IMG/VR virus record: IMGVR_UViG_3300027852_000032
Location: 1-64,000 of that record
From: a virus
Taxonomy: Duplodnaviria > Caudoviricetes
Length of the DNA stretch: 64,000 nucleotides
Strand: one strand, 5' to 3'
Part shown: in pieces, positions 8,790 to 53,862 of the stretch
Position numbering within the stretch: position 1 is the stretch's first letter
Layout: each line of letters begins with the position of its first letter
The notes under the pieces: model-generated
The model's input: only the letters and a program-made list of their open reading frames with translations
Told to the model about the DNA's origin: nothing
Databases searched by the model: none
Program-made: the position numbers and the translations under genes

Positions 8790-9881
8790 TTATTGTATTC
8801 TTATGGCAAACCATCGATCTGACTCCAGAGTCCCATCAGGAAGAATCAAAAATTTATCATTTCCGTACTCAAGAATTGTTCCAGGGGTTTCACCTACACA
8901 ATTACAGCTATAAAAAGGTGTTGTTGCGAAAGGTTGAATGTAGCTGTCCGCAGGTCTCATCACTGAGTAAACAGTTTTCATGAGATGGTAACGACCCCCA
9001 ATTGTTCTCGATATCTTTAAATCTTCAAAGTTCGGATACGAAAGTTCTGACCCTGAGTGATCTGATCCCTTTGTCCAGTAGTGATTCTCGTAAACAGGGT
9101 CTAAGTGTTCATCCCCCCATACTATTTTTCCTGCCGACTGCTGTGTTGTTGTCCCTTGCTCGTAGAAAAAAAGAGAAGTATAGGGTTTAGTTGAATAAGG
9201 AGCTGCAAATGTTCTGTACACCTCCCATGGGTAACACGTGGTAGAGGCACTGTTGTTTATAGGCGAAAAACACCTTAAGATCAAGTTTCCATCAATCGGC
9301 ATTGTTGCGTCTAACGGAACAACAGAGCCAAAGCAAAAATGTTGGTGATAGAAATTATCGTGTGTTATCGCCATCCAAATAAACTTATCATCTCCAAACA
9401 AGTACATCTTAGGGATAGCCAAGTCATGTGTTATCCGAATCCCCCCCGTACCAGTCTGGTAACTACCACACGCTTCAAAAGAGTTATTGGAATCCTGGTG
9501 CCACGGAGCATACCGATTCCCTGTGGCGTCATAAGTTGTATTTTTTACAGCTCCCAAACCAAGAGCATAATCCGTAGGATCATGCCCCGCCACCCCCCCG
9601 CGAGGGTTGTAAGTGCTGACACTTTGGTGGAAATTATGCAACATGAACTGAAAGATAAGGTTCTGTGCCCCTCCCCATCCGGGAGAACTTAGGTGAAAAA
9701 AAGAATAGTATGAATCCGGGGTTCCCTGGAATCCATAAGGTTCTTCGAACTGTTCATAGCGTTCACCAGAACGAAAACCTGATTCTGTCCAACCTGCGGC
9801 CACTGCAAATGCTCGGAGTTTCGCAACAACGTCTGTTATTCCGCTTACATTCGTATGTATTTCATAGTTAGGATAAAGCAC
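8790..9881 (-). CDS. Virion structural protein (tail)
   Basis: Long ORF; GTG at 9881 preceded by GGAGG is the more likely start than 9971. Confidence 0.6.
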   Translation of the reverse strand: MLYPNYEIHTNVSGITDVVAKLRAFAVAAGWTESGFRSGERYEQFEEPYGFQGTPDSYYSFFHLSSPGWGGAQNLIFQFMLHNFHQSVSTYNPRGGVAGHDPTDYALGLGAVKNTTYDATGNRYAPWHQDSNNSFEACGSYQTGTGGIRITHDLAIPKMYLFGDDKFIWMAITHDNFYHQHFCFGSVVPLDATMPIDGNLILRCFSPINNSASTTCYPWEVYRTFAAPYSTKPYTSLFFYEQGTTTQQSAGKIVWGDEHLDPVYENHYWTKGSDHSGSELSYPNFEDLKISRTIGGRYHLMKTVYSVMRPADSYIQPFATTPFYSCNCVGETPGTILEYGNDKFLILPDGTLESDRWFAIRIQ

Positions 9882-9885
9882 TATT

Positions 9886-11658
9886 TTATACCTCCTCCAC
9901 GGCGTAAAAGTTATAAACCCCACCGTTTGCCCCACCGTAGAAAATTCGATACGTTTTGCTCCCCTGAACAAAGGTGCTTTCCGCTGTCAACGACTGCCCC
10001 CGCGCAACGAAGATACCATCTAATTGGGTGAGTAAAACGTCGTTTGCCTCCTCTTTTACGTAGACTGGCCATGTCATTAGTAACCCATCATACGTAGAAG
10101 CAACCGGCTGTATGTTGATATCACCCTGTTGGGGAGCCATAAACAATTCGTTATATTTATAAACACCACTTGTAGAACGCAAAAGCATATAAGTCCCAAG
10201 AGACGAAGAATTGTAACCTCTATGGACAGAATACCTATTCGAAGCGTAAAGGTAATCGTACACATCCCCTCGTTCTCCGATGGCCATGTTCGGCCTCGGA
10301 TAGCTGGACGGTGGATCTAAACGGTAAGCAAATCCAGTATACGCCGATGTGTAGCTTGAGTCCGAGCATCTCGCGACCATAAAAATCCTCTGTTTATTAG
10401 CGTATAGCCACATAGGAAGAATCGAATCGGAAAACGGAGCTGTAGGCAACTTCGAAAAACATTGGTTACTTGTGTCATATGTCCCCATACCAAACCCATC
10501 GAGATTCACATGCCAAAGTGTTAATGGATCGCTGTGGTAAACATTTAACGCCCACCCCCACTTTGACGTAGAGGTATTCTTCCACTCCCTTATACCTATA
10601 AGTATTTCTTCTACCCCTGAAATCCCTGTACTTTTCAAAACACAAGCACGTGTTTCGTCTCCGTGAGTAGTTTCTACATTAGATATGTTTCTCGCATTAT
10701 CCCACAACCTGACTTCCCAATCGCCCCTGTCAGGATCTGTTACATACTCTTTATAGTTCATTACCAATGTGGTACCTGTTGCAGGGGCTGCATCAAACTC
10801 CAAAGACCATGTACCATCCTTTGCTACGGAACCGGCAGTCACCCCAGTTCCAGTAATAACACCGTCAGCATCAGCGTAAGCTACGTACTGATTGGCCCAA
10901 AGATCATGGCCTTTGGTCACTACAAAATCGTCAACTGTCACAGATACTCCAGAATCAATTGCCCGATGAAGCTCAATATCAACAGTAACTTCACGCCCAT
11001 TACGCAAAGGGAAACTCCCTACAAGCGTATAGGAGCCCGCTCCATCTTTTCCATAAAATTCAACAACAGTGTTTATTCTTTTTAATTTCAACCCACCATA
11101 AGCTGAAGTACGAGCAGAGGCAACGATAGATGACAGGTTATCACTGAAATTAGACTGACCAAAAAACTTAGCGCCGTCGTAGACCCCGGCATAACATTCC
11201 ACGTAATTATCCGCATCAACTGAGAACCGTAGACCTACACCATCGGCGTCATCTGCCAACCCCGATAGGCTGCTGAAATCGAAAGATATTTCACAATCAT
11301 CAAGGACTCTAAAGTTACTGGATAACACAACGGAATCTGCGGAACCAGTAGCAGCTATCGCTAATGCTAAATCTCCCGCAGCAGATGAAGAACCATCCGT
11401 CCCGTTGTCAACTGTCCATCTCGTAGTATTCAGCGTCGCAAAATCATCATCAGCCGAAGCAGGTGAAACTGTGGTCCCGTGAATTACAGCAGCTCCATAC
11501 CGGTGCACACTTGTGTTAGACAAAGTTCCAGAGAAGCCGGTCTCACTACTGTCTGGTGTTCCAAGTGACTCCCCTTCCACTACAGTACCCGTAGCATAAT
11601 CAACTAAGGCATCCAAAGCGCCACAAAAATCAAAAGCTGTTTTGGTTGTGAATGACAT
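9886..11658 (-). CDS. Virion structural protein (tail), Gly/Ser/Thr-rich, possible lectin-like insert
   Basis: 590-aa ORF coupled to the tape measure stop; beta-rich composition. Confidence 0.6.
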   Translation of the reverse strand: MSFTTKTAFDFCGALDALVDYATGTVVEGESLGTPDSSETGFSGTLSNTSVHRYGAAVIHGTTVSPASADDDFATLNTTRWTVDNGTDGSSSAAGDLALAIAATGSADSVVLSSNFRVLDDCEISFDFSSLSGLADDADGVGLRFSVDADNYVECYAGVYDGAKFFGQSNFSDNLSSIVASARTSAYGGLKLKRINTVVEFYGKDGAGSYTLVGSFPLRNGREVTVDIELHRAIDSGVSVTVDDFVVTKGHDLWANQYVAYADADGVITGTGVTAGSVAKDGTWSLEFDAAPATGTTLVMNYKEYVTDPDRGDWEVRLWDNARNISNVETTHGDETRACVLKSTGISGVEEILIGIREWKNTSTSKWGWALNVYHSDPLTLWHVNLDGFGMGTYDTSNQCFSKLPTAPFSDSILPMWLYANKQRIFMVARCSDSSYTSAYTGFAYRLDPPSSYPRPNMAIGERGDVYDYLYASNRYSVHRGYNSSSLGTYMLLRSTSGVYKYNELFMAPQQGDINIQPVASTYDGLLMTWPVYVKEEANDVLLTQLDGIFVARGQSLTAESTFVQGSKTYRIFYGGANGGVYNFYAVEEV

Positions 11659-50640: not shown

Positions 50641-50847
50641 ATGGATAGAGAACTGAGGGCAATCGAGTTTGAAGCTTTAGCAATCGAGTCACAAATAATT
50701 TGCATAGAGGCTCAAGGAATGAAGTATGAAAATGAATCGTGTATGTATTTAGGTCAGGACGTAGCTTACCATGAAGGTTCTTTTCAGGAAAAAGCAGAGC
50801 AACTTCAATCGATAGCACAAAAAATAAGGGACTTGGCCAAGCTATGA
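50641..50847 (+). CDS. Hypothetical protein
   Basis: 68 aa, coupled to the next gene. Confidence 0.6.
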   Translation: MDRELRAIEFEALAIESQIICIEAQGMKYENESCMYLGQDVAYHEGSFQEKAEQLQSIAQKIRDLAKL

Positions 50848-51191
50848 AAATTGAAGAATTACAAAAATATTTTGAATACGCAGAGTCGAATCAAGTAAGG
50901 TTCGAAGGTAAATGTCACGATTGTGAACTCCCTGTTACTGTTGACGCAGACCTGGAAGCAGATGGAAAGATCACTGTTTCAGGAGGTGCATTGTTTAATC
51001 CCCAAATTAGTGCAGCTGATAACCAACTTTTTTTGAAATGTGAAGCGTGTTTCGAGAAAGACGATACTTTACAGAACTACCAACCATGCGCTGTGTATTC
51101 AAGGGTGGTTGGATATCTTCGACCAGTAGATAACTGGAATAACGGCAAAAAAGCGGAATATAAAAAACGAAAGCTTTTCAAAAATGTTTAA
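50844..51191 (+). CDS. Stand-alone NrdD C-terminal (glycyl radical) domain with Zn-binding Cys pairs
   Basis: CHDC, CEAC, YSRVVGYLRPVDNWNNGKKAEY..R. Confidence 0.82.
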   Translation: MKIEELQKYFEYAESNQVRFEGKCHDCELPVTVDADLEADGKITVSGGALFNPQISAADNQLFLKCEACFEKDDTLQNYQPCAVYSRVVGYLRPVDNWNNGKKAEYKKRKLFKNV

Positions 51192-52009: not shown

Positions 52010-52246
52010 GTGAAGTTGTACGACACAGTTCTTGGGTTAATAGAAATCAAGAACAAAATAAAAAACAATAGTGTTCATGACGGGGATTTGTCTGTTATGG
52101 AGGAAAATTATTTCAGTCAAATTATCGCACTTTGTCATGAAATTGCAAACATGACAAAGTGCTGCGCCACACCTGATTGGCAGGTTGATCTTTTCGATGA
52201 GATCTGCTGTGGAAACTGCGGAAGATTACTAAAGAATAAAAAATAA
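52010..52246 (+). CDS. Hypothetical protein with C-terminal Zn ribbon
   Basis: AGGAGG RBS; CC...CCGNCG. Confidence 0.6.
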   Translation: MKLYDTVLGLIEIKNKIKNNSVHDGDLSVMEENYFSQIIALCHEIANMTKCCATPDWQVDLFDEICCGNCGRLLKNKK

Positions 52247-52257
52247 AGGATAATGCA

Positions 52258-52548
52258 ATGAATAAAAAAGAATTTGTTAAAGAAATCCATAAAGAGCTTA
52301 CCACTGACAGTTTAAAACAGGCTTCTGAGGTTTTAGATGTCGTCGGAAAAATAATATCGGATACTTTAAAAAAGGCAGATAGCGTTACCCTCCCCGGCAT
52401 TGGGAAATTCGGCGTCAGGGTTAAGATTGCCCATACTGCAAGGAATCCTCAAACAGGAGGTTCAGTTGAAGTTCCGGCGAGGATTGTACCTACGTTTAAA
52501 GCTGTAAAAGCCTTGAAAAATATTATTAATGAAAAAGTGAAAAAGTAG
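52258..52548 (+). CDS. hup: HU/IHF-family DNA-binding protein, copy 1
   Basis: MNKKEF, LPGIGKF, ARNPQTG, PTFKA. Confidence 0.93.
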   Translation: MNKKEFVKEIHKELTTDSLKQASEVLDVVGKIISDTLKKADSVTLPGIGKFGVRVKIAHTARNPQTGGSVEVPARIVPTFKAVKALKNIINEKVKK

Positions 52549-52637
52549 GCGGACTCCTACACGGTTTTGCCAGGAAACCTGGAACCCAACACACTGAATT
52601 TCCGCCTATTCCATTTATAAATTCAGTGTGACCTGGC
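52546..52637 (+). ncRNA. Putative double-pseudoknot structured RNA, copy 1
   Basis: Five helices conserved by compensatory changes relative to 53134-53230. Confidence 0.7.
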
Positions 52638-52706
52638 TTTTATCTACTTGTGTCGGGTCTGCGGGGCAGATCTTAGAGACGCGCTTTTAACAAAAGGAAA
52701 ATAAAG

Positions 52707-52994
52707 ATGAATATTACTAAAAAAGAATTTGTTGCAAGAATCCATGAGGATCTTGCTACCGATACTCTGAAACAAGCAGCAGCAGTTTTAAATGTTGTTG
52801 AAGATATAATAACCGATGCCTTGGAAAATGCAGACAGTATCGTTCTACCCGGAATAGGAAAATTCGACGCAAAGGTTAAACACGCCAGGGTAGCCAGAAA
52901 CCCAAAAACAGGAGCTCTCATTGATGTTCCACCTAAAGTTGTGGTTACGTTCAAAACTGCGAAATCTTTAAAGGATGCCCTGAATGGAAAATAA
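52707..52994 (+). CDS. hup: HU/IHF-family DNA-binding protein, copy 2
   Basis: KKEF, LPGIGKF, ARNPKTG, VTFKTAKSLKDALN. Confidence 0.93.
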   Translation: MNITKKEFVARIHEDLATDTLKQAAAVLNVVEDIITDALENADSIVLPGIGKFDAKVKHARVARNPKTGALIDVPPKVVVTFKTAKSLKDALNGK

Positions 52995-53127
52995 AAATAA
53001 AAATAAAAATAAAAATAAAAACGAAGAGGCAGATGCAGAGGCAGAGGAAGCAGAGATTGAGCTTGATCCGGCCTTTGCCCTACCTATCTCCGGGCTTTCC
53101 GAAGTCATAAAAAAACTGAGAAGATAA
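52984..53127 (+). CDS. Possible 47-aa low-complexity peptide (not in ORF track)
   Basis: MENKNKNKNKNKNEEADAEAEE...KLRR; AAGGA upstream. Confidence 0.35.
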   Translation: MENKNKNKNKNKNEEADAEAEEAEIELDPAFALPISGLSEVIKKLRR

Positions 53128-53133
53128 CAAAAA

Positions 53134-53230
53134 AGCGGACTCCTTTCACGGGCTTGCCAAAAATCCCCGGAACCCAACACACCTGAATTTCCGCTGTTTT
53201 CATTTATTGGTTCAGGTGTGGTTTTGGCAA
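53134..53230 (+). ncRNA. Putative double-pseudoknot structured RNA, copy 2
   Basis: Same fold as copy 1; G-U pairs indicate the plus strand. Confidence 0.7.
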
Positions 53231-53301: not shown

Positions 53302-53862
53302 ATGTCAACAGTAGTTATAGACGCAGGGCACGGAGGTGAAGATATAAAAGGTGCAGTTTTCGAAGCTGCCCATGAGGACGAAATAAATCTGAACATCGCC
53401 TATTTCGTTGATTTTTATTTGACTATGGGAGGACATTCTGTAGTCCTCACCCGAGATACAGACGTGTATGTTTCGCTGTTCTCACGAGTTCAGATAACGG
53501 AACGCCAAAATGCGGATGCCTTTGTAACGATTCATTGTAATTCCGATAAGGATACAACTCAGCAGGGGATGGAGCTGTGTATTGGTAAAACGCCTTCGCT
53601 CGGTGATCTCCATCTCGCATGGCACATAGAAAAAACGATGCTGATGATGTTTCCAGACCGACGGCATTGGGGTATAAAAAATTCACAATACTACATAGAT
53701 AAGATCAGTCGACCAGCTGTTATGATAAGAACCGGATTCTTAACTAATACCCCGGATCGGCATTTTCTAATCAAAGTAGAGAATCAAAAACGCCTGGGCA
53801 AATGTATTGCCGAAGGCATAATGCGTTACCTTTTATTTATGGGAGGAAAATACAGATGGTAG
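53302..53862 (+). CDS. Amidase_3-family protein lacking the catalytic Glu
   Basis: DAGHGG, E, TIHCN retained; PAVMIRTGFL in place of PAVLIECGFL. Confidence 0.85.
   Translation: MSTVVIDAGHGGEDIKGAVFEAAHEDEINLNIAYFVDFYLTMGGHSVVLTRDTDVYVSLFSRVQITERQNADAFVTIHCNSDKDTTQQGMELCIGKTPSLGDLHLAWHIEKTMLMMFPDRRHWGIKNSQYYIDKISRPAVMIRTGFLTNTPDRHFLIKVENQKRLGKCIAEGIMRYLLFMGGKYRW

Follow-up and report, generated by a model that had tools for sequence, protein, structure and literature searches.

The 64,000-nt stretch of DNA analysed here (the window) constitutes the first 64 kb of the 136,909-bp, 96%-complete record of an uncultured tailed phage (IMGVR_UViG_3300027852_000032). It contains two copies of an element of about 95 nt, one of which follows a gene encoding an HU-family protein (HU1) and the other a second HU gene (HU2) and a short open reading frame (ORF). 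Results of our analysis support well the assignment of this element as a real structured RNA of the plus strand, representing a new family with a predicted layout of two interlocked pseudoknots. Four further distinct versions of the element were identified in four other uncultured phages (designated L008, L007, L010, and L013), and the covariation of paired bases, proposed in a first-pass annotation of the window from its two copies, extends to these homologues, each of which keeps all five helices.

Fold and covariation of the element

The first-pass annotation described five helices, A to E, with the strand order A B C D C' B' E A' E' D'. Both copies and all five helices of each are present as described:

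52544–52637, plus strand: RNA element copy 1, 94 nt, five helices predicted to form two interlocked H-type pseudoknots (covariance model R1, 126.7 bits; structural alignment)
52544–52553/52601–52610, plus strand: copy 1 helix A, core GGCGGA/UCCGCC, its 3' strand in the loop of hairpin E
52555–52557/52581–52583, plus strand: copy 1 helix B, UCC/GGA, in the same hairpin as helix C
52563–52567/52575–52579, plus strand: copy 1 helix C, forming with B one hairpin with a 5-nt bulge, UACAC
52569–52574/52632–52637, plus strand: copy 1 helix D, GCCAGG/CCUGGC, joining the hairpin C loop to the 3' tail
52590–52600/52620–52630, plus strand: copy 1 helix E, 11 bp, its loop holding A' and the conserved YCAUUUAU
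53134–53230, plus strand: RNA element copy 2, 97 nt (covariance model R1, 94.4 bits)
53134–53139/53190–53195, plus strand: copy 2 helix A
53141–53143/53169–53171, plus strand: copy 2 helix B
53150–53152/53166–53168, plus strand: copy 2 helix C
53154–53162/53222–53230, plus strand: copy 2 helix D, including GCCAAAA/UUUUGGC
53178–53189/53209–53220, plus strand: copy 2 helix E

The two copies, 590 nt apart in one operon, align with a mean column identity of 84%, and their likeness fades on both flanks. The 14-mer GGAACCCAACACAC that they share occurs at only two sites, both on the plus strand, in the whole 136,909-bp genome, and the reversed control pattern at none. The compensatory changes that had been reported between the copies are real: the outer pair of helix A changes from G-C to A-U, the GG/CC of helix D is replaced by AAA/UUU, and helix E of copy 2 has an extra C-G pair as well as U-G pairs.

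All six distinct sequences form these five helices, with order and register unchanged relative to the invariant motifs. Their sizes are 6–10 bp (A), 3 bp (B), 3–5 bp (C), 5–9 bp (D), and 10–12 bp (E), and that of the whole element is 90–97 nt. The helices were traced with a script anchored on three invariant motifs and extended through standard pairs only, so that the scarcity of mismatches is partly built in. Covariation, expressed as a per-position count over the six sequences, comprises changes on both sides at 25 helix positions, counting positions present in at least three of the six. Eight of the nine such positions of helix A changed in this way, compensatory changes were found at 9 of the 12 positions of helix E, and positions 3–5 of helix C covary. 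Helix B and the first two pairs of helix C are invariant in all six sequences and thus uninformative on pairing. The most divergent test of the fold is provided by phage L013, where the sequences of helix A (GGCACAAGA/UCUUGUGCC), helix D (GCUGGC/GCCAGC), and helix E (UCAGAUCGCU/AGCGAUCCGA) are wholly unlike those of the window copies and pair at identical places. As a control, 60 chance motif matches were folded by the same rules, and none reached at least 6 bp in A, 5 bp in D, and 7 bp in E together; the elements of L007, L008, L010, and L013 all do, as do both window copies. The retention of all five helices by four homologues, together with this control, indicates more than chance.

Three motifs, CUCCU, CACGG, and YGGAACCCAA, never change across the six sequences, and about 30 nucleotides that are unpaired or located in helix B are invariant. 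Of the linkers that the first-pass annotation had regarded as invariant, CACGG and YGGAACCCAA are constant across the homologues, but the CACAC part of GGAACCCAACACAC belongs to helix E and covaries with its partner strand.

The proposal that the G-U pairs point to an RNA of the plus strand is borne out by the six sequences, in which 11 G-U cells were counted versus a single A-C cell; the folded strand is therefore the plus strand, that of the flanking genes. Folding restricted to nested pairs also favours the plus strand (z-scores of -3.33 and -1.27 for the two copies versus -1.49 and -0.56 for the minus strand). A reading in which the conserved sequence is not RNA, being instead a protein-coding extension of the preceding gene or a DNA-level site for recombination, replication origin, or packaging, could draw on the frames that stay open through the element past the stop codon in several copies and on its location in a block of replication and nucleotide-metabolism genes. 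However, the copies differ by 1-nt insertions or deletions, which rules out a conserved reading frame, the substitutions are pairwise compensatory, and on the opposite strand A-C mismatches would stand in place of the 11 G-U pairs. We consider the probability of such a reading practically negligible, and coding read-through was dropped because of the inconsistent frames.

The alignment also suggests a geometry. Helices A and E would form a classical H-type pseudoknot with coaxial stems, with no nucleotide between E and A' and a closing loop of 9–14 nt that holds the conserved YCAUUUAU. Helices C and D form the second H-type pseudoknot, the first loop of which is 0–2 nt long, with no spacer in four of the six sequences. 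The long loop of each pseudoknot encloses the stems of the other, and single nucleotides link A to B and E' to D'. With linkers of 0–1 nt, A probably stacks on E and C on D, and we infer that the five helices may close into a ring in which both ends of the RNA are locked.

The first-pass annotation could not match this topology to any known ribozyme or riboswitch, and the comparison with Rfam using Infernal likewise yielded no family. There was no gathering-level match to Rfam 15 over the 64-kb window, and at E values of up to 10 nothing overlapped the element either in the window or in the four homologous loci L007, L009, L029, and L030. In ribozymes similar to that of hepatitis delta virus (HDV), the strands follow the order P1 P2 P3 P3' P1' P4 P4' P2', whereas in the element A' is located in the loop of E and D in the loop of C, and no Rfam model of the HDV family matches it.

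Occurrence of the element in other phages

The homologues were found by several routes. A motif scan of metagenome contigs gave one true relative, L006, and the same phage was met again, as L008 and L009, through the small ORF that precedes copy 2. Phage L007, which is different, was reached through the same ORF. L010 and L013 were added by two looser scans of viral contigs: the element of L010 is intact and scores 119.6 bits, and that of L013 scored 25.1 bits (E 4e-6) with a covariance model built without it. Each of the other phage records carries one copy, as compared with two in the genome of the window.

The identity of the element to copy 1 is 86% in L010 and 82% in L008 but only 74% in copy 2. 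Since copy 1 is nearer to the elements of these two phages than to its neighbour in the window, the pair did not arise by a simple, recent duplication of an HU gene together with its RNA. The RNA is also more conserved than its neighbours: the 86% identity between copy 1 and the L010 element compares with 48–56% for HU proteins.

All searches of public collections relied on exact motifs, so that members differing in CUCCU, CACGG, or GGAACCC escape them, and only the strictest pattern was applied, in a single pass, to the metagenome collection. The five lineages are therefore a lower bound, and the RNA family is probably larger. Within this scope, viral contigs other than the window's own record contained no match to the strict motif. 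A blastn comparison of both copies with 50,697 GenBank phage records returned only chance matches of 22–29 nt, and a scan of 185,579 species genomes only two chance matches inside genes (L011 and L012). Two metagenome matches, L004 and L005, were rejected as GC-rich coding sequences matching by chance. Of the 62 loci from the looser viral scan only L010 and L013 are real, and the inspected loci L074 and L042 are GC-rich chance matches. Relatives of the gene upstream of the L013 element (34–39% identity) are not accompanied by an element, and further motif scans and covariance-model searches yielded no additional members. A text search of the literature for the invariant strings retrieved unrelated primers only.

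Genomic placement and neighbouring genes

In all five lineages, the element is located in the untranslated gap just past a stop codon, inside an operon or at its end, and always on the strand of the upstream gene. The genes around the two window copies are as follows:

52258–52548, plus strand: HU1 gene, 96 aa (PF00216, E 2.7e-24; from the ORF list)
52707–52994, plus strand: HU2 gene, 95 aa (PF00216, E 1.2e-25)
52984–53127, plus strand: small acidic ORF, 47 aa, its product ending in EIELDP..LPI.GL.EVIKKLRR at the stop, conserved in L006/L008 (P0003) and L007 (P0004)
53302–53862, plus strand: Amidase_3-family gene downstream of copy 2 (PF01520, E 2e-33), given as context only

In five of the six copies, a TAA stop codon lies 6–8 nt 5' of helix A: 6 nt in L007, in L013, and in copy 2, where the stop is that of the 47-aa ORF overlapping the end of HU2, 8 nt in L008, and 6–8 nt in L010, where the small ORF is frameshifted and the TAA is no longer in an open frame. 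In the sixth case, copy 1, helix A overlaps the TAG stop codon of HU1 (52546–52548), which falls within its 5' strand. The distance of the element from the stop codon before it is about the smallest compatible with a terminating ribosome.

A spacing of 6–8 nt is canonical for recoding pseudoknots, and the A-rich lysine codons (AAA AAA, AAA AAG) just 5' of the stop would also suit a signal that promotes read-through or frameshifting or modulates termination. The A/E pseudoknot, of H type and apparently coaxial, resembles in these respects the read-through pseudoknot of murine leukaemia virus (MuLV) gag-pol and the -1 frameshifting pseudoknots of the dnaX and infectious bronchitis virus (IBV) type. 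However, the frame through the element varies between copies as a result of the 1-nt indels, the extensions end at unrelated places, so that no extended or shifted frame is conserved, and in L013 the stop is a tandem TAA TAG. Moreover, the second, interlocked pseudoknot and the approximately 30 invariant nucleotides are not needed for recoding, and the same spacing would be expected if a knot were packed as near to the gene as the terminating ribosome permits. A recoding or termination signal is therefore very unlikely.

The upstream gene is HU1 in the case of copy 1, the small acidic ORF in the case of copy 2, L007, and L008, with a degenerate form in L010, and a gene encoding a phrog_30542 protein in L013. 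The downstream genes all differ, encoding HU2, the amidase-like protein, a DUF5758 protein, a phrog_4074 protein, and a zinc-ribbon protein. In L013, a hairpin with a U-run begins 8 nt after the element and is followed by the end of a convergent gene, so that the element is there a pure 3' untranslated region (3'UTR). The terminator-like structure is located at L013:10200–10240 (minus strand). The convergent gene (9851–10201, plus strand), preceded by a 402-aa gene, encodes a 116-aa product ending in DDIPF, which we take to be the tail typical of single-stranded DNA-binding (SSB) proteins.

With no gene downstream on its own strand, the element of L013 cannot be a leader there. This bears on the suggestion of the first-pass annotation that the RNA might be a ligand-controlled regulator of the downstream gene, which is now unlikely. 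The complexity of the fold is aptamer-like, and the conserved CUCCU could pair with the downstream Shine-Dalgarno sequence (AGGAG) of L008 and L007, but no two of the five downstream genes are alike, the 3' flanks show no relationship, and no expression platform is conserved. A riboswitch or leader is accordingly highly improbable. The pairing of CUCCU was dropped as an explanation, as any pentamer similar to an anti-Shine-Dalgarno sequence would be capable of it and L013 is devoid of such a site. Likewise dropped were base pairing between loop L3 and the start regions downstream, which is inconsistent across copies, and the complementarity of GAACCC to the T-arm of tRNA, which extends over 6 nt only.

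Nor are the window copies intrinsic terminators. At neither of them is a GC-rich hairpin directly followed by a U-run, the scan for plus-strand intrinsic terminators found none at either copy, and terminators after the copies are not evident; helix strand D' is followed by four U in copy 1 and by none in copy 2. A 7-bp hairpin without a U-run (GGUCUGC-GGG-GCAGAUC, window 52652–52670) lies between copy 1 and HU2; neither the region after copy 2 nor the homologues have an equivalent.

The first-pass annotation regarded the RNA as part of a module with the two HU paralogues, whose products are 56% identical. This association does not hold. PF00216 was not found in the 68-kb L013 record (75% complete) or the 27-kb L010 record (43% complete), both incomplete. 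Between HU and the element of L008 lie a MazG-like gene and a small ORF. A third HU-family gene of the window's phage, situated outside the window (G000:C1:127121-127390), has no element beside it; its 111-aa ORF is 37–38% identical to HU1 and HU2. Although HU genes often lie near the element, they do not appear to be its partner, and an HU operator was dropped as a reading. The best relative of HU1 among 5.8 billion proteins is only 46% identical, and no close relatives of HU1, HU2, or the amidase, used as anchors, were found among viral contigs.

The commonest upstream neighbour is the small acidic ORF, a family of 35–47 aa with a basic tail (EVIKKLKK) represented at window 52984–53127, L008:3416-3529, and L007:146-253. 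Most differences between its copies affect third codon positions, and EIELDP..(L/S)PI.GL..VIKKL is retained, which marks it as a real gene. No Pfam or PHROG match was found for it, and a search of 1.84 billion proteins with its profile recovered mainly long repetitive proteins, taken as compositional matches, only P0004 being real. The window ORF starts with five AAATAA repeats encoding (NK)n, which are absent from its relatives. In L010 (8741–8838), the ORF is broken: the product beginning with MEEHVARKINV ends early, LDPDL...GLSEIIKN is encoded in a different frame, and six consecutive A, one short of the seven needed, cause a frameshift ahead of the usual terminal KKLKR at the stop codon. 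Decay of the gene or a sequencing error in the homopolymer may account for this.

Several other features of the region deserve description. Directly 5' of HU, a 78-aa Cys-rich protein is encoded at window 52010–52246, with a counterpart at L008:2426-2662. Neither Pfam nor PHROG contains a match to this protein, the C-terminal half of which hardly varies (HEIANMTKCC..PDWQVDLFDEICCGNCG); judging from its sequence, it looks like a small zinc-binding protein specific to this phage group. A 115-aa protein (window 50844–51191) matches only the extreme C-terminus of the anaerobic ribonucleotide reductase NrdD (PF13597, positions 520–562 of 562, E 9e-11), and the syntenic place in L010 is occupied by a full 603-aa ORF with an NrdD-like C-terminus, as assessed by reading and not by a Pfam scan. 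No tRNA genes were detected in the window with ARAGORN.

Possible functions of the RNA

The first-pass annotation proposed self-cleavage, nuclease blocking, binding of a ligand or HU, or a decoy role. The function that we tentatively favour, at well under even confidence, lies in RNA decay: acting in cis, the element would form a knot by which decay is blocked or directed at the boundaries of cistrons. As a boundary element of the phage transcript, the compact knot would resist unravelling by processive enzymes, mainly exoribonucleases (RNase J, PNPase, RNase R), and perhaps would also hinder Rho or stray ribosomes. Decay arriving from one side would halt at the knot, and the neighbouring cistron, or an RNA derived from the 3'UTR, would gain a defined and stable end. 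This proposal is drawn from the very stable, knotted fold with its predicted locked ends, the strong conservation, the untranslated placement near a stop codon, the lack of a fixed gene partner, and the 3'UTR location in L013.

The closest analogy is that to the class 1 exoribonuclease-resistant RNAs (xrRNAs) of flaviviruses such as Zika and Murray Valley encephalitis (MVE) viruses, which are also compact RNAs (about 70–100 nt) of untranslated viral RNA. In flaviviral xrRNAs, one pseudoknot ties the 5' end into the core and another latches the apical loop to the 3' tail (PMC8374639). They act as a general, protein-independent mechanical block, which halts also bacterial RNase J1 (PMC5760640). 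In the element, A-A' ties the 5' strand to the loop of E, and D-D' ties the loop of C to the 3' tail, both pairings covarying; the likeness is one of layout only. The element consists of two hairpins (B/C and E) without a three-way junction, its 5' pseudoknot comprises 6–10 bp as opposed to 2–3 bp in xrRNAs, it is carried by the mRNA of a DNA phage and not by the genome of an RNA virus, and it has no sequence or covariance-model similarity to xrRNAs. A ring of about 15 nt around the 5' end and the halting of 5'-3' exonucleases further characterise class 1 xrRNAs. By this comparison, the element is xrRNA-like in layout and not a member of the xrRNA family.

Several points weigh against the decay-blocking function. 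We know of no exonuclease-resistant RNA from a DNA phage, and our literature search for one found none. The fold has neither the three-way junction nor a match to the Rfam xrRNA models, and the likeness to xrRNAs is read from secondary structure, in which threading of the 5' end is not visible. The approximately 30 invariant nucleotides, unpaired or in helix B, would fit catalysis or specific recognition by a protein equally well. In L013, the 3' end is already protected by a normal terminator, and nothing coding lies downstream. Finally, since helix A of copy 1 contains the HU1 stop codon, every round of HU1 translation requires ribosomes to melt this helix.

The chief competing explanation is self-cleavage: the element would belong to a new ribozyme class and would cut polycistronic phage transcripts at gene boundaries, a possibility that we consider unlikely. 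The size of the element, its double pseudoknot, and invariant junction nucleotides (CUCCU, CAC, ACCCAA, YCAU) are typical of small ribozymes, and no gene accompanies it constantly. However, orphan motifs have mostly proved negative when assayed for self-cleavage, and nothing points to a cleavage site. The long and stable helices E (10–12 bp) and A are unnecessary for catalysis, and the lack of similarity to any Rfam ribozyme model, even at the permissive threshold, and the helix order, which is not HDV-like, also speak against this explanation. Phages do carry many small ribozymes in such positions (PMC10879173). The HDV-like and minimal theta ribozymes of uncultured Caudoviricetes described there are likewise small double pseudoknots located between genes on the gene strand of tailed phages, as is the element, which occurs in one or two copies per genome. 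They differ from the element in that those of the theta subgroup often adjoin the 3' ends of phage tRNAs, which the window lacks. Self-scission at G1 and a catalytic C in J4/2 further characterise HDV-like ribozymes.

Alternatively, the element might be a site bound in cis by a protein or RNA polymerase, such as a processive antitermination RNA or an operator for HU or the product of the small ORF; we regard this as doubtful. The put and EAR elements are also structured RNAs that act in cis from untranslated gaps of operons, just past an ORF, and the put sites of phage HK022 (putL and putR) occur in two copies, as the element does in the window genome. The position of the L013 element 8 nt before an intrinsic terminator, the invariant helix B and linkers as a possible recognition surface, and the small ORF with its KKLKK tail, which adjoins the element in three lineages, would be consistent with a binding site. 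But put consists of two simple stem-loops, which the element does not resemble, no similarity to the Rfam model of the Bacillus EAR (epsC) was found, no terminators are evident after the window copies, and antitermination does not need two copies 590 nt apart in one operon. As for the candidate binding proteins, L013 and copy 1 lack the small ORF, which in L010 is disrupted by frameshifts; HU was not found in two incomplete carrier records, and a third HU gene lacks the element.

A non-coding RNA released from the 3'UTR and acting in trans, for instance as a decoy for a host defence protein or another RNA-binding protein, is rather improbable. In L013, the element with its terminator resembles a stand-alone small-RNA unit between convergent genes, and the sequence conservation is high for an intergenic region of phages. 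There is, however, no evident promoter-like site 5' of the window copies, there is no known target, and no more than about 20–25 nt separate the element from the next start codon in L008 and L010, for which reason it is there better read as part of the mRNA. Type III antitoxin RNAs (ToxI, CptI) are also pseudoknotted, repeated, and linked to the conflict between phage and host, but they form tandem repeats of 36–45 nt directly upstream of the gene of an endoribonuclease toxin. The element, of 90–97 nt and in one copy or in two 590 nt apart, has no tandem short repeats and no toxin-like neighbour, and a ToxI-like antitoxin was dropped.

Irrespective of the choice between the decay-blocking knot and a ribozyme, we estimate at a little short of even the chance that the fold is active in its own right and the first of a new class. 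This would be either the first protein-independent, exonuclease-stopping, xrRNA-like knot in the mRNA of a DNA phage or bacterium or a new ribozyme composed of two interlocked H-type pseudoknots.

Complex and strongly covarying folds with about 30 invariant nucleotides are rare and have repeatedly proved to be ribozymes, riboswitches, or nuclease-resistant knots. The element is small enough for direct biochemistry and structure determination, and its six natural variants constitute ready compensatory mutants for all helices but the invariant B. Structured untranslated RNAs at phage gene boundaries are already known; the family and its helix layout are new. If the element cleaves itself, it would represent a new ribozyme class. 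If it blocks exoribonucleases, the principle of xrRNAs would extend from RNA viruses of eukaryotes to the mRNAs of phages, and the element would provide a compact part for the stabilisation of bacterial transcripts. Were its role limited to processing or insulation, it would still show how these phages set the boundaries of messages inside long operons.

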